Origin: a virus
Lineage: Duplodnaviria > Heunggongvirae > Uroviricota > Caudoviricetes
Reading direction: 5' to 3' (one strand)
Length of the DNA: 58,959 nt
Virus record (IMG/VR): IMGVR_UViG_2541047708_000006
The notes below the pieces were generated by a model. The model did not search any database. It had not been told where the DNA came from and worked only from the letters and a program-made list of their open reading frames with translations. Position 1 is the first letter of the stretch. Each line of letters begins with the position of its first letter. The position numbers were made by a program, and so were the translations under genes. Shown here one piece after another: positions 698-55,640 of the stretch.

Positions 698-1060
698 GGG
701 GCTGATTCTGGATTCGACGGGATTTGCGAAACCCAAGGTGCATGCCGAGGGGCGGTTGGCCTCGTAAAAAGCCGCAAAAAATAGTCGCAAACGACGAAAA
801 CTACGCTTTAGCAGCTTAATAACCTGCTTAGAGCCCTCTCTCCCTAGCCTCCGCTCTTAGGACGGGGATCAAGAGAGGTCAAACCCAAAAGAGATCGCGT
901 GGAAGCCCTGCCTGGGGTTGAAGCGTTAAAACTTAATCAGGCTAGTTTGTTAGTGGCGTGTCCGTCCGCAGCTGGCAAGCGAATGTAAAGACTGACTAAG
1001 CATGTAGTACCGAGGATGTAGGAATTTCGGACGCGGGTTCAACTCCCGCCAGCTCCACCA
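698..1060 (+). ncRNA. ssrA: tmRNA (transfer-messenger RNA)
   Basis: Starts GGGGCTGATTCTGGATTCGACGGG, contains tag-reading-frame region, ends GGTTCAACTCCCGCCAGCTCCACCA; matches recalled E. coli ssrA. Confidence 0.95.
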
Positions 1061-38906: not shown

Positions 38907-39138
38907 TAAGCAAAAAAGCTCCCGAAGGAGCCTTCATTTTCACTTTCTTAAATCTAACGACAGATGGCTAACATTTAAGTATTGTGAAATATTATCAAAT
39001 GTAATCATCATTGATTTACAAAAGATACATTTTGCCCCGAAAGGATTTCTGTCAGAAACATCAAAAGATGATGTTCTATACTGAGAACCATGGCAACACG
39101 GGCATCTAAAGTGAATATGGTTTGTAATATTTTCTACC

Positions 39139-39351
39139 TCAAAGTGCCACTACATGAACAGCTGCAGGGCCTTTAGGTCCGTTCTCAATACCAAATTCGA
39201 CTTCCTGATTCTCAGTTAACGTTTTGAAATCGTTGCTCTGAATAGCTGAGAAATGCACAAACACATCTTTGCTACCATCTTTCGGCGTGATGAAACCAAA
39301 ACCTTTTTCAGGGTTAAACCATTTCACTAAACCAGTCATTTTGTTAGACAT
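39139..39351 (-). CDS. Cold-shock protein (CspA family)
   Basis: [19 protein letters not shown]...[11 protein letters not shown] motifs. Confidence 0.9.
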
Positions 39352-39714
39352 CATTATTACCTTTTGAAGAAGTTAGCCCTTGGGCAGAATGGTCCGAAAA
39401 AAAATATCAGAGAGAAAAACCAACAAGAAAATCTCAAGAGGTACAAATAATAAAATTATAACAATGACTGCTTCAGATAATTTTGTAACAAACCAGAACA
39501 CCATTAACGCATGATTAACCAACCATAGCAAGGATTACTTTTGTAAAGAAAAACACACGAATGAAACAATAGCTTTATTTATTAATAAAACGTGTCATTC
39601 TGTCTAATGACCTTTTATCTTACCCTTAAGATTTCAAGGATTTTGACTCATGGAAGAGTCCTTTTTATTTAAATTTCACATTCAGCGCTAAAAATAATCC
39701 GATTTAATATTAAT

Positions 39715-42312: not shown

Positions 42313-42587
42313 GTGGTACTTTTTGTGGGAGTCATCCACTTACGCACTTTGTTTTGCTATGCCAGCAGTTAGCTTCTGCTGTAAAACTATTCATGCAGCA
42401 AACCTGCACTTCACCACAATGGTTAGCATACTTTTCCTGATTAAGTTATTGCCAAATATGCTGGCCATTGTTTCATGTATTGGACCTCCTTACTATTTAT
42501 TAAAGAGATCCAATATTCACCACTCTGTCTGTATCTCCACTCAGGCATCAGCCTTCTTCGTTATCGTATACAGACAAACTATGAATT

Positions 42588-42803
42588 TTAATCAGTAATT
42601 ATGACATTTGCTGCTGCAGGACCTTTAGCACCACTCTCTACAGAGAAGGTAACCTTTTGACCTTCAAATAAGGTTCGAAAATTATCATTCTGAATCGCAG
42701 AAAAATGCACAAACACATCTTTACTACCATCAACAGGAGAAATAAAGCCAAAACCTTTATCAGCGTTAAACCATTTTACTAAACCAGTCATTTTATTTGA
42801 CAT
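42588..42803 (-). CDS. Cold-shock protein (CspA family)
   Basis: [21 protein letters not shown]... Confidence 0.9.
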
Positions 42804-43103
42804 TCTACATTCCTTAACTTGAGCCTTTCGGCATAAATGGCTTGTATAACAGAAACGACTTCGTACTTAATTGGAGAGACTCAAAGAAGGAATAAGTGAA
42901 TAACACCTGAAATGAGAACTGCTTTAGTAAACTACTTCGTATATCGTCTGTTCTTCAAACCGACGCAATCATTAACGCATAGTTGAACATATGAAGCAAT
43001 GTTTATTTTAGACATCCAGCCATCTTCAACCCCATCAAAAAACTATAGCTTTCTTCAGGAACGTGTGTATAGTGCGCCCAGTTATCAGTATTAAGGAATT
43101 TTT

Positions 43104-48789: not shown

Positions 48790-49043
48790 GCGTTAGTTTC
48801 TCCACAACCAGAAGCAATCGACGCCACGACGCCCGGAGCTGCACACTCGCGGGCGTCATTACTTTCTGAAATGCAAAAAATTTTGTAGACAAGTGCTGCA
48901 TGCTCCTGCAGCTTCGAAATTGAGAGATACAGCTCGTCGTTAATTGCTGTCTTCTCATGCGGTTCCACTACACCGTCTTCGATTGCTGAACGAATCTGTT
49001 TTGAATAACTGCCGATCTCTACTTTCCAGTGATGCTTACCCAC
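48786..49043 (-). CDS. Hypothetical protein (cII position)
   Basis: 85 aa ORF directly downstream of cro-like gene. Confidence 0.5.
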
Positions 49044-49046
49044 GGT

Positions 49047-49295
49047 TCACCTCCTGTTCCTGTGGTTTAAACCCATTCTGGTTTTGGCTAGATTGAAAAC
49101 GTGCCGGATAAAGAATTTGCATTTCGCTGACTTCACCATTAAAAAATTGGCTAAACGTTCTGCAAGCTCGATAGATGGAATCTGCTCCAGCCTCTCAATA
49201 CGACTCAATGTCGCTGGATTGACTTGAACACCCGCAGCAACATGCTGCAAAGTGAAACCATGCGCCTTACGCACATTTCGTAATGGTGATTGCAT
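49047..49295 (-). CDS. cro: Cro-like HTH regulator
   Basis: 82 aa XRE-type HTH (GFTLQHVAAGVQVNPATLSRIE), divergent from CI gene. Confidence 0.75.
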   Translation of the reverse strand: MQSPLRNVRKAHGFTLQHVAAGVQVNPATLSRIERLEQIPSIELAERLANFLMVKSAKCKFFIRHVFNLAKTRMGLNHRNRR

Positions 49296-49392
49296 ATACC
49301 CTCCAAATATTGCGCGTTATGCATGTTATTTCACGCAATTATTTTGCGCAAGTTGATTTGCTTATCACGCAATAAAGAAATGTAATAAACGC
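49296..49392. promoter_or_regulatory. Divergent CI/Cro operator-promoter region (oR-like)
   Basis: 97 bp AT-rich intergenic with repeated TTGCGC/GCGCAA half-sites. Confidence 0.5.
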
Positions 49393-50085
49393 ATGAACAT
49401 AGGAAACCGAGTCAGACAACTTCGCCAAGCGAAGAACATGAAAATCGCCGATCTCGCTGAAGCAATAGGAGTAGATGCGGCGAACATCTCGCGCTTAGAA
49501 ACGGGTAAGCAAAAACAATTTACCGAACAAACACTGAGTAATATTGCCAAGAGCTTAGGTGTTGATATTGCTGATCTCTTTACCTCTGCCCTCAAAAGTA
49601 ATACTGTATATAAAAACAGTAATAATGAGGATGTTGCGCAGGTGAAGGATGTGTTCCGTATTGAAATGCTGGATATCAGTGCCAGTGCGGGAAATGGCCT
49701 TATCCAGGGCGGTGATGTCATTGATGTGATTCATGCCATCGAATACAGAACTGATAATGCTGTATCAATGTTCGGCGGACGACCGGCCAATCACATCAAA
49801 GTTATCAACGTTCGTGGGGACAGTATGTGTCCAACCATTGAGCCAGGAGATCTCATCTTCGTTGATGTCAGCATCAATCAGTTTGATGGTGATGGTATAT
49901 ATGTCTTTGGTTTTGATGACAAAATATACGTTAAAAGACTTCAAATGATTCCTGACAAACTGCTGGTGATTTCTGATAACCAGATTTACCGTGAATGGGG
50001 AATTACTAGCGAAAACGAACACCGATTCATGGTCTTTGGAAAGGTCTTAATCAGTCAGTCGCAAACCCTTAAGAGACATAATTAA
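49393..50085 (+). CDS. cI: CI-type repressor (HTH plus S24/LexA-like peptidase domain)
   Basis: N-terminal HTH; C-terminal VRGDSM serine motif and later Lys; 230 aa. Confidence 0.9.
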   Translation: MNIGNRVRQLRQAKNMKIADLAEAIGVDAANISRLETGKQKQFTEQTLSNIAKSLGVDIADLFTSALKSNTVYKNSNNEDVAQVKDVFRIEMLDISASAGNGLIQGGDVIDVIHAIEYRTDNAVSMFGGRPANHIKVINVRGDSMCPTIEPGDLIFVDVSINQFDGDGIYVFGFDDKIYVKRLQMIPDKLLVISDNQIYREWGITSENEHRFMVFGKVLISQSQTLKRHN

Positions 50086-50104
50086 CCTCAATATCCCATC
50101 CATC

Positions 50105-50127
50105 GGCCACTGAAAGGTGGCTTTTTA
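50105..50127 (+). terminator. Terminator after cI
   Basis: GCCAC-TGAAAG-GTGGC then T5. Confidence 0.6.
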
Positions 50128-50149
50128 TTACCCATCATTTTGCATATTT

Positions 50150-50186
50150 CGCAAATGCCACTTGCATATCTCGCAATTTAATTTTA
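50150..50186. promoter_or_regulatory. Operator-like direct repeats (TTGCATATTTCGCAA / TTGCATATCTCGCAA), candidate oL
   Basis: Two 15 bp near-identical units with TTGC...GCAA ends. Confidence 0.45.
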
Positions 50187-50351
50187 TCTTTTGTTCCAGA
50201 CCAACTACAGGATTACAACAAAATCTGGTTGCAACACGGTGCACGGTGCATGTGTCGTAAGCGGTCAGTAAATGTCAAAAACGAACAGGCAGGACGCCCA
50301 CGAAGTAGCCGCCTGGGGCATATGAAGTCCAGGATGATTCGTTAGCAACAA

Positions 50352-50385
50352 AAAAGCGCCCTATAGGACGCTTCGCTCTTTAACA
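50352..50385 (-). terminator. Terminator for minus-strand moron
   Basis: Imperfect palindrome AGCGTCCTATAGGGCGCT followed by T-run on minus strand. Confidence 0.55.
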
Positions 50386-50399
50386 ATCTGGATGACTTA

Positions 50400-50912
50400 T
50401 TACTCAGATTTGAACTTTGGTTCTGGCAAAAGAGGAGGAGTTGAGTCCTCGAATCGTAGCCAGTGCTCCCAGATATCGTGGGATTGTAATTCCAGAAGAC
50501 CAATTTGACGTGATGCAACTGCAGTGCCAGCTATAGTTCCTCCTACATAATCAACCTGGACGGACTTTGACGCTTTCTCAATTAATTCTGTCCAAGCTTC
50601 ACTTTCCGCGTTAAAAGAAGCAGTTAATTCCTGCAGACGCTGTGGATCATCCTTGTTGTCTTGTTTCAAACGATTCAGGGCGGCCACCGAATACTTATTC
50701 TTAACCCAACTAACCTGAGCTAACTGAACTCTCTGACAAGCGTCCATATCAGTAGTTGTTTCCTGAGGCATATCAAAGCAGGAAATAAAAAAAGTCTCAA
50801 CACCATCATTTAGACTACTGCTCGGCTGGTTCAAAGCATCAGAAGCATTGGATGCTATCGGTATTATCAGTGCTACCGACAGAATCAAACGTTTAACATA
50901 AATCGCTCCCAT
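50400..50912 (-). CDS. Secreted/periplasmic protein of unknown function (moron)
   Basis: 170 aa with N-terminal signal peptide (LILSVALIIPIASNASDA); opposite strand to surrounding operon; own terminator. Confidence 0.6.
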   Translation of the reverse strand: MGAIYVKRLILSVALIIPIASNASDALNQPSSSLNDGVETFFISCFDMPQETTTDMDACQRVQLAQVSWVKNKYSVAALNRLKQDNKDDPQRLQELTASFNAESEAWTELIEKASKSVQVDYVGGTIAGTAVASRQIGLLELQSHDIWEHWLRFEDSTPPLLPEPKFKSE

Positions 50913-51379
50913 TTAATTATCCCCTCTAAGAACAGAGTCATCCAGATTAGCCGAATCCTTGTTGTTGGGGAATAACCAGGCCCACCTCGCCTGATGTGGC
51001 TAAAAGCAGGCACATAACAGCTAAGTATTTTCAACCAGAGAGAATCCTTAGCGTTGTGGTGAATGCGGCTCAGCGCACGCGGGTTAAGGTTGAGGCTGAC
51101 AGTCGACCTTCTGTGGATACCCACCCGCCTGGTGTGCAACCTTCGCCAGGCACCGGGAGGCCCCGGCACCACAACTTTATGCTGTGTGTAGTCCTGGCGG
51201 TACCAGCTTGTACCCTTGCTTCCGGCTGGTACCGCTCTTTTTACAAAACAGAGAAGAGCATCACCGGACGACGGGCTCATAACCCAATCCACCCGGGCGG
51301 CTGCCACCGCAGGTGTTCTTCTCTGTTTTGTGGAGAAACCAACCGACCTTGCAGGGTCGATATGATGAGGAGCAGCAAA

Positions 51380-51742
51380 ATGGCTAGCGAACGCAGTACC
51401 AACGTGCAGGAATTTATCGGGGAGCTGGACGGCGGCGTATTTGAAACCAAAATCGGCGCAGTTCTCAGTGAAGTCGCTTCCGGTGTGATGAACACGAAAA
51501 CCAAAGGTAAGGTCTCGCTCAACCTGGAAATCGAACCGTTTGATGAGAACCGTGTGAAAATAAAACACAAACTCTCATATGTTCGTCCGACTAACCGCGG
51601 GAAAATTTCCGAAGAAGACACCACCGAAACGCCGATGTATGTCAATCGCGGTGGTCGCCTGACTATTCTGCAGGAAGACCAGGGACAATTACTGACTCTT
51701 GCCGGTGAACCTGACGGAAAACTCCGCGCAGCAGGTCATTAA
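51380..51742 (+). CDS. YfdP-like protein
   Basis: Start placed at MASERSTNVQEF; upstream part of the long ORF has junk-like composition; similarity to CPS-53 YfdP is recalled, not searched. Confidence 0.6.
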   Translation: MASERSTNVQEFIGELDGGVFETKIGAVLSEVASGVMNTKTKGKVSLNLEIEPFDENRVKIKHKLSYVRPTNRGKISEEDTTETPMYVNRGGRLTILQEDQGQLLTLAGEPDGKLRAAGH

Positions 51743-51807: not shown

Positions 51808-52632
51808 ATGTCTCAGAACTTAGACGCAACCGCAATTAATCAAATCCATGCCCTTATTTCTGCTCAGGGTGTTAATGAAATTATCAGTAAGATTGGTGCC
51901 GACGCAGTGGCATTACCTGAAAATTTCCGCATTCATGATCTGGAAAAATTTAATTTAAATCGCTTCCGTTTCCGTGGTGCGCTTTCCACTGCCAGCATCG
52001 ATGACTTTACCCGTTATTCTAAAGATCTTGCGGATGAAGGCACCCGCTGCTTTATCGATGCCGATAATATGCGTGCCGTCAGTGTGCTTAACCTGGGTAC
52101 TATTGATGAGTCTGGTCACGCAGATAACACCGCCACTCTCAAACTGAAAAAGACAGCACCGTTCTCTGCTCTGTTGTCTGTTAACGGCGAGCGTAACTCC
52201 CAGAAGTCACTGGCAGAATGGATTGAAGACTGGGCCGACTACCTTGTGGGCTTTGATGCTAATGGTGATGCCATTCAGGCAACAAAAGCGGCTGCGGCAG
52301 TCCGTAAAATCACGATTGAAGCAAACCAGACCGCTGATTTTGAAGACAATGACTTCAGCGGCAAACGCTCCCTGATGGAGTCTGTCGAAGCGAAGACCAA
52401 AGATATTATGCCAGTGGCATTTGAATTTAAATGCGTTCCGTTTGAAGGCCTGAAAGAACGTCCGTTTAAATTACGCCTCAGCATTATCACTGGCGATCGT
52501 CCTGTACTGGTTCTGCGCATTATTCAGCTGGAAGCAGTGCAGGAAGAAATGGCTAACGAATTTCGTGATCTGCTTGTTGAGAAATTCAAGGACAGCAAAG
52601 TAGAAACCTTTATTGGTACTTTTACCGCCTGA
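51808..52632 (+). CDS. YfdQ-like (DUF2303-like) protein
   Basis: 274 aa ORF with RBS; family assignment from recall. Confidence 0.65.
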
Positions 52633-52759
52633 TTTCATTACTGCAAATGCCCCTGCGGGGGCATTTATGGAAACGTAATTGACTCAATAATCGCCGGATG
52701 GTGAGGGCTTTCTTTTACCAGAATTCAGCGCGGTGCAGCGCATATACGTGGAGAACAAA

Positions 52760-53284
52760 ATGTCATTTATTAAAACTTTTTCCGGGAAGCATTTTTATTA
52801 TGACAGGATAAATAAAGACGACATCGTTATTAACGATATCGCGGTTTCTCTTTCAAATATCTGTCGCTTTGCAGGACATCTTTCACATTTCTACAGCGTC
52901 GCCCAACATGCGGTGCTTTGCAGCCAACTGGTACCGCAGGAATTTGCTTTTGAAGCGTTAATGCATGATGCAACAGAAGCGCATTGCCAGGACATCCCGG
53001 CGCCACTGAAACGCCTTCTTCCTGACTATAAACGGATGGAAGAAAAAATAGACGCCGTAATCCGTGAGAAATACGGGTTACCCCCGGTTATGAGTACGCC
53101 CGTGAAATATGCCGATCTCATCATGCTGGCAACCGAACGCCGCGATCTCGGGCTTGATGATGGCTCTTTCTGGCCCGTACTGGAAGGTATCCCGGCAACA
53201 GAGATGTTCAAAGTTATTCCACTGTCGCCAGGCCATACCTATGGGATGTTTATGGAACGCTTTAAAGAGTTAACTGAGTCGTAA
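52760..53284 (+). CDS. HD-domain protein (YfdR-like 5'-deoxynucleotidase)
   Basis: H...H and HD motifs (AGHLSHFYSVAQHAV, LMHDATEAH); RBS GGAG before ATG 52760. Confidence 0.7.
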   Translation: MSFIKTFSGKHFYYDRINKDDIVINDIAVSLSNICRFAGHLSHFYSVAQHAVLCSQLVPQEFAFEALMHDATEAHCQDIPAPLKRLLPDYKRMEEKIDAVIREKYGLPPVMSTPVKYADLIMLATERRDLGLDDGSFWPVLEGIPATEMFKVIPLSPGHTYGMFMERFKELTES

Positions 53285-54261: not shown

Positions 54262-54507
54262 ATGTTGCTCCCGTGTGCAGACGGGATAATGGAGAAACGT
54301 ATGCTGAACCTCGATTGTGTTCCTATCTCAACTTATTGCAAAGAAACTGGCGAAACTCCTGAAGCAATAAACAAACGTGTACAGCGCGGTGTTTGGCGTG
54401 AAGGTGTTCAGGTTTTAAAGGTTGAAGGCGTTAAGGAGAGGTGGATTGATCTTAGTGAGGTTGCAAAATGGGCCAGACAAAACTGCTCAAACTACCGCGC
54501 GGCGTAA
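54262..54507 (+). CDS. xis: Putative excisionase
   Basis: 81 aa ORF overlapping int start; position upstream of int; weak motif. Confidence 0.45.
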   Translation: MLLPCADGIMEKRMLNLDCVPISTYCKETGETPEAINKRVQRGVWREGVQVLKVEGVKERWIDLSEVAKWARQNCSNYRAA

Positions 54508-55640
54508 CAATCAGGAAACACCACCAGGGAGAAACGATCAATATAACTTTCACCTACAAAGGAGTTAGATGTCGTGAGCCGCTTTCCAATCTGGAAGTAA
54601 CACCAAAGAACATTAAATACGCCGAGCGTACACTCGGCGAAATCCATAATAAGATCGAAAGGGGAACATTCATTTATGCAGAATATTTTCCCCGTTCTGC
54701 TCGTTTGAAAATTTTTGGTAATGCTGCTGCAAGCAAAACGGTAAAGATGTACCTAGACGAATATCTTGAAATCTGCGAAACAAGAAAACTTTCACCCTCT
54801 ACGATTGGTGGCTATAAAAAATGCCGTAGTGCGTTAGCCTCACTTCACATTTGCCCTGCAAGTGAATTAACACCAGCAACCCTGAAAGCGTGGATTCAAA
54901 GCCAGAAAACAACCTTAAAAACCATTCGCAACCAGTTATCTTTCCTACGGTCAGCACTTGATGAAGCCGTGACCGATGGGGTACTTCAAATTAACCCCGT
55001 ATCGTTAGTAACAGCTTCGCGCTACCAAAGTGATAAGTCAGAAGCAGAAAGCAGCTATGTGGTTGATCCGCTATCACCAGCAGAAGTTGATGCATTACTA
55101 GCAGCAGCCGGAAACAAACAATGGGAAAATCTGTTCCGGTTCGCCATACATACAGGCCTGCGTAGTTCTGAATTATGTGCCCTACGATGGCATGATATCG
55201 ACTTTGTTGGAAAAACAGCCCATGTTCAGAGCGCAAGTGTTGTCGGAGTTATCAAAGGAACAAAGACAAAAGCCGGTACCCGTAAAGTTGAACTGACTGA
55301 AGAAGCAATGTTGGCGTTGATAAACCAGAAGCCATTTACATTCATGAAGGATGCTACTGTCTTTGAAGATCCAAAGACCAATAAACCCTGGGCAAGTGCT
55401 GATGCAATCAGGAAAAAAGCATGGGTGCCAACATTGCGAAAAGCAGGTATTCGTTACAGAAATCCATATCAAACTAGGCATACATTCGCCACCCGCCATA
55501 TCAGCCGGGGAGCAAACCTGTTTTGGCTTGCAGCTCAAATGGGGCATAAAGGGCCGGAAATGTTATTTCGTCATTATGGTTCATATTTAAAGGAATATGA
55601 CGGTAATACGACCAGCAATATCACAAAAAAAGCCACTTAA
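54468..55640 (+). CDS. int: Prophage tyrosine integrase
   Basis: 390 aa; C-terminal RHTFATRH...GH...FRHYGSY catalytic motifs. Confidence 0.9.
   Translation: MGQTKLLKLPRGVTIRKHHQGETINITFTYKGVRCREPLSNLEVTPKNIKYAERTLGEIHNKIERGTFIYAEYFPRSARLKIFGNAAASKTVKMYLDEYLEICETRKLSPSTIGGYKKCRSALASLHICPASELTPATLKAWIQSQKTTLKTIRNQLSFLRSALDEAVTDGVLQINPVSLVTASRYQSDKSEAESSYVVDPLSPAEVDALLAAAGNKQWENLFRFAIHTGLRSSELCALRWHDIDFVGKTAHVQSASVVGVIKGTKTKAGTRKVELTEEAMLALINQKPFTFMKDATVFEDPKTNKPWASADAIRKKAWVPTLRKAGIRYRNPYQTRHTFATRHISRGANLFWLAAQMGHKGPEMLFRHYGSYLKEYDGNTTSNITKKAT

Follow-up and report, generated by a model that had tools for sequence, protein, structure and literature searches.

The early-left leader of a lambdoid prophage of Escherichia coli contains a conserved structured RNA, here called X, which lies between the predicted early-left promoter pL and a gene read in the opposite direction. 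The prophage is part of IMG/VR virus record IMGVR_UViG_2541047708_000006 (Caudoviricetes), a stretch of 58,959 nucleotides (nt) that is referred to below, at its full length, as the window. We consider it close to certain that X is a functional structured RNA, and it represents an RNA family that is absent from Rfam 15 and annotated in none of the records examined. The gene on the opposite strand (50400-50912) is, judging by sequence comparison, a moron, that is, an accessory gene residing in a recombination hot-spot of the pL leader. For the region as a whole we mildly favor an explanation that joins the two: a moron in the pL-leader hot-spot, and next to it a device made up of X and a boxA that would let early-left transcription read through.

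X is a conserved three-way-junction RNA

A segment of about 67 nt (roughly 50277-50343) that directly precedes the left junction of the slot holding the moron is conserved well beyond the close relatives of this prophage. Covariation analysis of a gap-free alignment of 104 distinct sequences, together with RNAalifold and covariance model (CM) R1, defines these elements:

50280-50343, + strand: X, 64-nt three-way-junction RNA
50280-50285 with 50338-50343, + strand: helix P1 of X
50288-50298, + strand: P2 of X, the invariant mini-hairpin GGC-AGGAC-GCC (family form GGC-AGGAN-GCC)
50312-50316 with 50329-50333, + strand: helix P3 of X

The helices are borne out by compensatory changes. P1 occurs as ACGAA/UUCGU, CCACC/GGUGG and UCAUC/GAUGA, and P3 as CCUGG/CCAGG, CUACC/GGUAG, CCGAC/GUCGG and CCGGU/ACCGG; double-sided changes are found in 10 of the 14 pairs. 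Across the 104 copies, 94.4% of the cells are paired, a share that falls to 22-42% on shifting the partners by 1-3 columns, and the covariation score is 0.608 compared with 0.159 in shuffled alignments, with no shuffle out of 500 reaching the observed value. RNAalifold, run de novo, returned the same three helices. X also has invariant stretches (AGGCAGGA-GCCCACGAAGUAGC, GC..A.GAA and AUGA) and invariant single strands, among them CACGAAGUAGC. Part of this core invariance, however, follows from the search patterns themselves. A second set, collected from IMG/VR with the 3' half-core and the loop only, comprises 102 further distinct copies. In this set, the unconstrained positions (A14, GGC, AGGA, G23 and AUGA) are 91-100% conserved and 92.6% of the cells are paired.

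Three other structures were considered for X and dropped. A first, hand-drawn pairing of ACAGGC with GCCUGG and the minimum-free-energy fold of the single sequence are both contradicted by covariation, and a pseudoknot that would join GUAGC (positions 32-36) to the P3 loop was given up because variation in the loop is not compensated. Counts of G.U versus A.C do not tell the transcribed strand apart, and the orientation of X therefore rests on genomic context. None of the papers in the text collection searched contains the core sequence.

X is widespread in Enterobacterales and starts close to pL

BLAST detected X in 49 phage records from Escherichia, Shigella, Salmonella, Klebsiella, Citrobacter, Yersinia, Pantoea and Pectobacterium, none of which annotates a feature at this place. 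Scanning one genome per species with a 22-nt core added about 90 copies, all but two from Enterobacterales. The two exceptions, locus L056 (labelled Chryseobacterium sp. 18061) and locus L073 (labelled Pseudomonas lundensis I31), have enterobacterial-looking flanks and are probably due to contamination or mislabelling. Among complete E. coli genomes, 1854 of 5426 (~34%) carry X, with up to four copies per genome; the copy of strain K-12 is in e14, between ymfK (cohE) and ymfJ. In the window CM R1 has a single match, with 91 bits.

Matches to the 22-mer core beyond Enterobacterales (Reyranella, Delftia, Rhizobium, Gordonia, Haloarchaeobius) were discarded as coincidence: they lie in what looks like conserved coding sequence, and the rest of X is absent. 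Core matches with N = A in Alpha- and Betaproteobacteria (L032, L035, L038, L045, L057, L061, L065 and others) fall in a GC-rich GGGCAGGAAGCCCACGAAGTAGCAGGG.TG.CCGGC...GCCGATCTCGCTGTC context with the look of protein-coding sequence. In the scan of IMG/VR, a loop-plus-junction pattern yielded chance matches only, and it was the half-core pattern that succeeded. Small "hypothetical protein" open reading frames (ORFs) of 33-51 amino acids (aa), on either strand, have been called over X in some records (L143, 3593-3709; L144, 770-886, from E. albertii; Kati CDS0002; Eeyore CDS0025) and are likely artefacts.

The genomic position of X is stable. In every case examined, it lies 76-540 nt (median 167) past a repressor-type gene on the same strand. 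At 94 loci, the upstream gene matches HTH_3 (58), Peptidase_S24 (37) or Phage_CI_repr (16), and in most it is of the cI type. The place of X is independent of the genes that follow, be they yfdP/Q, RecE/Kil, Gam/RecT or others. A good sigma70-like promoter is present within 150 nt in 132 distinct upstream regions. In these, P1 starts a median of 15 nt after the last base of the -10 element, and in 74 of the 132 the gap is 10-19 nt. X therefore begins around position +8 of the pL RNA. In a second group of copies (L012, L014-L019, L022, L023 and others, including SPN3UB, mEp237, SEN34 and a Klebsiella ST846 phage), X is followed by another conserved non-coding stretch, AACGCGCAGCAGG...AACGTTCCGCYRGCC.GGCG. 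The phages of this group are of the RecE/Kil type (Gifsy-like), and the stretch, which could be further leader structure, does not occur in the subfamily of the window.

The leader encodes neither N nor a known antiterminator RNA

The first-pass annotation of this DNA had placed an antisense gene with a signal peptide where an N-like antiterminator would be expected, had seen no N-like ORF, and had asked how early-left transcription is then antiterminated. The absence of N was borne out: no early-left ORF of the window matches an N family in Pfam or PHROG. A 38-aa arginine-rich ORF with a TTG start (50229-50345, + strand) was examined as a candidate for N and rejected, as it overlaps X and has no Pfam or PHROG match. 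Nor does it behave as a conserved gene, since a promoter only 10-19 nt ahead of X, as most relatives have it, leaves no space for a start codon, or as coding sequence, since in the copies of the ZF40/Xenorhabdus type the P3 variant GGTAGATGA gives an in-frame TAG (read from the alignment). As far as the alignment can tell, this basic ORF is an artefact of the conserved RNA.

Known antiterminator RNAs were sought as well. Rfam 15 has no match at E<=10 in 50130-50400, including hammerhead and other ribozymes and riboswitches. For the put RNA of phage HK022, we used covariance model R2, made from the sequences of putL, putR, HK639, phiEt88, CobraSix and S9-5. This model recovers putL with 96.6 bits and putR with 54.7 bits but finds no match in the window or in eight X-bearing loci, and with filters off over 48900-51500 its best score is 3.1 bits. 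With Pfam, PHROG, Rfam and the put model, the interval 50130-50400 thus holds neither an N-like ORF nor a known antiterminator RNA. What did not stand is the impression that this interval is empty, as it contains X.

The put RNA of HK022 and HK639 is among the closest known systems to which X can be compared. It is a cis-acting structured RNA of ~65-75 nt, encoded by a lambdoid phage without N and located at the very 5' end of its pL transcript (PMC9378689); in HK022, putL spans +2 to +74 of the pL RNA and put occurs in combination with the N homologue Nun (PMC9378689). Like put, X has a core conserved across hosts, sits at the 5' end of the pL transcript and has terminators downstream. The three-way junction of X contrasts with put, in which a triplex or pseudoknot accompanies two stem-loops, and the two have no sequence match. 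Homology had at first been suggested by ACGAAC-GGC and CAGGAUGA, which group-1 copies of X have in common with putL. It was ruled out because CGAAC belongs to the variable P1 helix and is CCACC or UCAUC elsewhere, and because the folds differ and each covariance model misses the other family, that of X having no match in HK022. BLAST with HK022 putL likewise retrieved a separate set of phages (HK75, O276, phiEt88, HK639 and others).

A hairpin and a boxA follow X

Downstream of X, the leader contains two further elements:

50353-50374, unstranded: hairpin with 9 pairs, with AAGCGCCC-TATA-GGACGCTT at 50354-50373, followed on the minus strand by the T-run TTTTTTGTT, with which it forms the intrinsic terminator of the moron
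50375-50387, + strand: boxA GCTCTTTAACAAT, by sequence a perfect boxA of the rrn type

The first-pass annotation had credited the antisense gene with a terminator of its own. The hairpin with its T-run is real, but it is part of a conserved unit that serves other cargos too. This unit, an AAAAAA run, a GCGYCC-loop-GGRCGC hairpin with variable loops and TT-N-GCTCTTTAACAATC, recurs at 10 or more other loci; it also precedes genes on the + strand (Kati, L024), and in group-2 phages it lies 76-81 nt past X. Read on the minus strand, the hairpin has a G.U pair in its stem and a U-run after it, whereas the + strand has a C.A mismatch instead, which makes it the weaker terminator in that direction, followed by CGCUCUUUAACAAU. 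This strand asymmetry (GCGCCC..GGACGC) is kept in all relatives that carry the unit. The unit therefore seems made to keep antisense transcription out of pL and cI and, at the same time, to offer boxA to transcripts from pL.

The boxA of the window is identical over 13 nt to the E. coli rrn boxA core, and the order of hairpin before boxA presumably matches that of the rrn leaders. An exact or one-mismatch boxA is found 3-105 nt downstream of X in 19 of the 104 loci, with a chance expectation that we estimate at ~0.002 per locus. A perfect boxA in the pL leader with a preceding hairpin is reminiscent of the lambda/P22 N-nut and the rrn boxB-boxA-boxC systems. In contrast to these, the window has no N protein and no boxC-like sequence, and its hairpin doubles as the terminator of an antisense gene. 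The hairpin, which precedes boxA, has a UAUA loop and no GNRA-like pentaloop, and is not boxB-like.

Ahead of yfdP, the earliest recognizable early-left gene, stands an intrinsic terminator in the path of the pL transcript:

51197-51245, + strand: intrinsic terminator, an 11-base-pair (bp) GC-rich hairpin (GCGGTACCAGC...GCTGGTACCGC, 51197-51235) followed by TCTTTTTAC

Over 13 diverged loci, its stem shows compensatory changes (GGCGGTACC/GGTACCGCC versus GTCGGCGTC/GACGCCGAC) and its T-tract is invariant. To reach yfdPQR, xis and int, a pL transcript therefore has to pass this conserved + strand terminator, unless these genes are served by other promoters.

X and boxA as a candidate read-through device

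We propose the following course of events. Transcribed from the prophage in the direction opposite to pL, the moron mRNA would end at the orientation-biased hairpin, and antisense transcription would thus not run on into pL and cI. After induction, transcription from pL would cross the moron in antisense direction. The pL transcript would begin with X and continue into the boxA, and nascent X, either alone or with NusB/NusE at boxA, would modify the very RNA polymerase that made it. The modified polymerase could then read through both the moron hairpin and the terminator at 51197-51245 and reach yfdPQR, xis and int. The action proposed for X is that of HK022 putL, exerted by an unrelated fold. 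The near-invariance of X from Pectobacterium to Escherichia would be in keeping with a ligand that is itself highly conserved, such as RNA polymerase or the Nus factors. For phage LLS, which has the same early-left type, an RNA mechanism was already suspected since N is missing, and the way in which lambdoid phages that have neither N nor put pass their early terminators is a recognized gap (PMC12315714).

Strict antitermination by X is a tentative suggestion from its sequence and position, which we judge to be somewhat short of an even chance. Slightly more tentative still is the idea that X could be the first of a second, structurally unrelated class of phage cis-acting RNAs that bind elongating RNA polymerase, possibly with NusB/NusE at boxA.

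Several observations weigh against a read-through device of this kind. CM R1 finds no copy of X on the pR side, X being present once per prophage; in this respect, putative antitermination by X would be unlike that of HK022, which has both putL and putR. HK639 carries only putL. The predicted pL start of the window is ~83 nt away from X, compared with the usual ~8 nt; the window and SfII have an extra ~70 nt between pL and X. A boxA is recognizable at no more than the 19 of 104 loci given above. Prophages of the Xenorhabdus type have X together with N-like proteins and canonical boxA/boxB nut sites, so that X cannot simply be regarded as standing in for N. Finally, yfdP and the genes following it could have promoters of their own, which would be an alternative to read-through.

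Two other functions for X have to be weighed. X might be a 5' leader element of a different kind, i.e., a stabilizing or RNase-processing structure, a ligand or temperature switch, or the body of a short trans-acting small RNA (sRNA) that termination or processing close behind it would set free. We regard this as rather doubtful. Invariant junction and loop nucleotides in a compact three-way junction are what is typically seen in RNAs that bind ligands or proteins, and such a function would sit well with the presence of X beside N and nut in some prophages, with the hairpin that follows X in the subfamily of the window, and with the abundance of Hfq-binding sRNAs in prophage regions (bioRxiv 10.64898/2026.05.13.724894). 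Across the family, however, X is not followed by a conserved expression platform or terminator, and the sequence after P1 differs by subfamily. In lysogens, moreover, repression of pL would also silence X, an unusual situation for a trans-acting regulator, and the conserved terminator further downstream would be left unexplained.

The second possibility, which appears unlikely, is that X is a protein-recruitment site analogous to nut, which together with boxA loads an unrecognized antiterminator protein of the phage or the host, X itself having no direct action on RNA polymerase. The boxA sequences near X, exact or with one mismatch, in 19 of 104 loci speak for it, as do the Xenorhabdus-type loci, where X is followed by boxA, a hairpin and an arginine-rich N-like ORF. 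At three of these (L117, L136, L100), boxA is accompanied by a GATTCA-GGCATTCT-TGAATC hairpin, and at L115 and L121, the only loci with true boxB hairpins, boxA is accompanied by the lambda-type boxB GCGCUGAAAAAGCGC. N-like ORFs (phrog_271) with the arginine-rich motif AARRYERRAAFLAKK follow X in Xenorhabdus-type loci only and make up 7-8 of 82 first downstream ORFs; no N-like protein was found at the Escherichia, Salmonella and Klebsiella loci. The genes past X are unrelated between phages, which argues against a co-inherited protein partner, and where a canonical boxB is present, it is a separate hairpin, so that X is not needed for N binding. Size also counts against a recruitment site, since the N-binding sites known are hairpins of ~15 nt and X is a junction of 64 nt.

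If X is an antiterminator, it would explain early-left expression, including that of xis and int, in the very common N-less lambdoid prophages of Enterobacterales, such as e14, SfV/SfII/SfIV, ST64B, mEp460, SPN3UB, mEp237, phiNP and ZF40. X with boxA is a concrete, testable candidate for early antitermination in N-less lambdoid phages, even in E. coli K-12. Whatever its role, X is an RNA family for annotation pipelines, and the small ORFs called over it, possibly also ymfH, are probably spurious.

The antisense gene occupies a polymorphic slot in the pL leader

The gene that lies antisense in the leader and the borders of its slot are as follows:

50400-50912, - strand: moron gene of 170 aa with an ATG start (phrog_7681; WP_000500991.1), supported by gene call, homologues, and profile and structure matches
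50385-50408, unstranded: left arm of an imperfect inverted repeat of 24 nt, from a repeat search (13 nt perfect, AATCTGGATGACT)
50925-50948, unstranded: right arm of the inverted repeat (AGTCATCCAGATT), overlapping the 5' untranslated region (UTR) of the moron and the start of block (a)
50942-51020, + strand: border block (a), which forms the conserved margin of the slot on the right and is common from 50982 on even to phages with an empty slot

The order of cI, operators, predicted pL and yfdP confirms that the gene lies antisense between cI/oL-pL and yfdP, at the position of N in lambda, as had been described. Its homologues, which fall into ~20 protein clusters from Escherichia, E. albertii and Klebsiella, are 55-93% identical and have 51 invariant columns. 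Because of this conservation, the ORF qualifies, at the level of sequence, as a real gene and not a chance ORF. It is preceded by the Shine-Dalgarno sequence GAGGGG, 7-12 nt 5' of the ATG.

The description of the gene as a moron was likewise upheld, as some phages have it and others that are collinear apart from it do not, with sharp junctions. BLAST comparison with SfV, SfII and Kati places these junctions at 50343/50344 and 50981/50982 (or 50941/50942). Outside of them, the sequences share 94-98% identity; inside, they are unrelated. SfV carries orf33 on the + strand, SfII a 63-aa gene on the minus strand, and Kati a 68-aa gene on the + strand and a 144-aa gene on the minus strand. Other genomes have minus-strand ORFs of 151-216 aa, and further cargo is found in L055, L056, L091 and others, so that at least five unrelated cargos occur at the same two junctions. 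The slot is empty in phage Eeyore and in a Buttiauxella prophage, with the flanks 4 nt apart, and in Eeyore and L080, X is joined straight onto block (a). Among ~140 X-bearing loci, the moron gene itself is present only in L001, a record identical to the window. Homologues that are 71% and 65% identical occupy the same slot in prophages of Klebsiella variicola and E. albertii, beside different immunity regions, where the gene order is cI, X, hairpin/boxA, gene (- strand), block (a) and yfdP.

The inverted repeat brackets the moron ORF exactly and is also present at the Klebsiella homologue locus. It could pair the 5' UTR of the moron mRNA with its 3' end, loop the cargo out of the pL transcript, or be a relic of insertion or recombination. 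A shorter core of the repeat, AATCTGGAT / ATCCAGATT, is part of the conserved slot borders.

Classical lambdoid morons such as lambda bor and lom or the exclusion genes of the HK97 gp15 type resemble the gene in being absent from close relatives and in having a terminator, an exported product and, likely, expression from the prophage; this likeness leans in part on what is generally known of morons. The gene differs from them in its place inside the pL leader, its antisense orientation, the bracketing inverted repeat, and the want of a recognizable promoter or GC deviation. The last two features count against moron status: no plausibly placed sigma70-like site lies within 218 nt upstream, and the GC content of 0.42-0.45 does not deviate from that of the flanks (0.38-0.45 in cI and the leader). 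These same two features, along with an identical position in three genera with different immunity regions, would fit an ancestral, integral early-region gene (e.g., for superinfection exclusion) whose slot varies by ordinary module exchange, a reading that is nevertheless quite improbable given the empty sites with X abutting block (a), the five or more unrelated cargos at 50343/50344 and 50981/50982, the inverted repeat and terminator flanking the gene, and a family of only ~20 protein clusters that is rare among X-bearing loci. The two views lie close to each other, since morons can be exclusion genes.

The moron product is a predicted exported DUF1311/LprI-like protein

The protein, called "hypothetical" in RefSeq and of unknown function in PHROGs (phrog_7681), begins with MGAIYVKRLILSVALIIPIASNA|SDA, where the bar marks the predicted cleavage site. 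The segment has the anatomy of a Sec-type signal peptide, as the first-pass annotation had proposed, with a basic n-region (K7/R8), a hydrophobic core of 12 residues (Kyte-Doolittle 9-residue mean of up to 3.3) and a small-x-small site S-N-A followed by S. It is kept in the homologues. In the AlphaFold (AF2) model, residues 1-25 have a predicted local distance difference test (pLDDT) score below 50 and are the sole disordered part. Two cysteines, C45 and C59, are invariant in the homologues, and the protein is probably disulfide-bonded.

Profile and structure searches point to DUF1311/LprI. A hidden Markov model (HMM) of the family, made from an alignment of 11 sequences and searched against 1.8 billion representatives at E<=1e-3, retrieved 246 proteins, mostly of ~140 aa, which align over residues 51-166. 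Ten remote proteins were sampled from this search: all have E<=0.01 against PF07007, with a best E of 8e-20, and nine exceed the gathering score. The AlphaFold model (pLDDT 76.5, predicted template-modelling score 0.72) has a three-helix core (53-85, 90-121, 125-152) with small beta elements. Its top Foldseek matches in the PDB are 3gi7_A and 3gi7_B, the DUF1311 protein PP0307 (probability 1.00, template-modelling score 0.69-0.80 normalized to the target, root-mean-square deviation 2.2-4.0 Å). The direct match of the moron protein to Pfam LprI/DUF1311 (PF07007; residues 50-137) reaches 17.1 bits (E=0.0076), below the 22-bit gathering score, and the Foldseek E-value against 3gi7 is weak (0.16); both figures tell against the assignment. 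Since a sub-threshold Pfam match, transitive profile homology and 3gi7 as the best structural match coincide, we assign the product as a putative divergent member of the DUF1311/LprI superfamily, predicted to be exported by Sec to the periplasm.

With the members of PF07007 (Pseudomonas putida PP0307/3gi7, Salmonella ScwA, the N-terminal domain of Mycobacterium tuberculosis LprI), the protein would share a secreted helical domain of ~100 residues and conserved cysteines. It differs from them by extra N- and C-terminal beta elements, including the conserved C-terminal tail STPPLLPEPKFK, and by being prophage-borne. ScwA, the one LprI-domain protein of a Gram-negative bacterium to have been studied, is a periplasmic, DsbA-dependent protein with four cysteines that was acquired horizontally and changes the levels of the lytic transglycosylase MltD (PMC7933661). 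By likeness to ScwA, binding or modulation of peptidoglycan-cleaving enzymes is the most likely activity of the moron product, and its targets could be host enzymes, host-defence lysozyme or the enzyme of an incoming phage. Such a role is set back by the finding that ScwA does not inhibit lysozyme, that in M. tuberculosis LprI the inhibiting part is the MliC domain, and that no inhibitory or biochemical activity has been demonstrated for the DUF1311 domain itself (PMC7933661). If the protein does act on peptidoglycan-cleaving enzymes, it would be a lysogen fitness or exclusion factor. Taken alone, the moron adds one more exported DUF1311-fold protein to the prophage accessory genes, which is of modest interest.

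Prophage setting and neighboring features

The window is a segment of E. coli chromosome that contains a lambdoid prophage, 3.4 kb of it being 100% identical to strain C 237-04 (NZ_CP109921). The immunity region and the early-left genes, the latter identified by gene calls, Pfam, PHROG and record annotation, are arranged as follows:

49047-49295, - strand: cro
49393-50085, + strand: cI-type repressor gene, with helix-turn-helix and Peptidase_S24 domains in Pfam and annotated in the record as an XRE-family regulator
50105-50122, + strand: cI terminator, from a terminator scan
50140-50154 and 50162-50176, + strand: oL operators TTGCATATTTCGCAA and TTGCATATCTCGCAA, of the form TTGC-N7-GCAA
50162-50167 and 50185-50190, + strand: -35 (TTGCAT) and -10 (TATCTT) elements of the predicted pL, with a 17-nt spacer, pointing away from cI (prediction by consensus match)
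51380-51742, + strand: yfdP
51808-52632, + strand: yfdQ (DUF2303)
52733-53284, + strand: yfdR, with a gene without assigned function between it and xis
54262-54507, + strand: xis
54468-55640, + strand: int

A third operator of the same form, oR, is located at 49358. The pattern occurs six times in the whole 59-kb window, and three of these matches flank cI.

The GC-rich block that separates the slot from yfdP contains, besides the terminator described above, two further features:

51023-51245, + strand: STnc100-like sRNA module (Rfam RF02076), ending in the conserved intrinsic terminator
51243-51331, + strand: conserved long hairpin of 25 bp between the terminator and yfdP, from repeat search and alignment folding

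The match to RF02076 (51023-51244) is full-length, with 37.5 bits and E=3.6e-6, and stays below the gathering score of 47; at this threshold, STnc100 is not reported for the window. As in the STnc100/PasD prophage sRNAs, the aligned block has CACCGGGAGGC-CCCGGCACCA as its central motif and closes with the terminator. The described STnc100/PasD copies are located in late regions, near Q or downstream of stx, whereas the sub-threshold copy of the window is within the operon of the early-left genes. The whole GC-rich block (50982-51379) is annotated as ymfH in K-12 e14 (L141, 3225-3612) and is a frameshifted pseudogene in the window. It behaves as structured RNA rather than as coding sequence, and ymfH may be a spurious ORF.

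Two observations concern other parts of the window. The sequence at 698-1060 (+ strand) indicates that the prophage probably sits in the ssrA-proximal insertion region. The cspA thermoregulator family has two matches, at 39093-39509 and 42525-42964 (both - strand), with 107.5 and 156.5 bits, respectively; the prophage therefore has two cold-shock-protein-like genes with cspA-type 5' UTRs.

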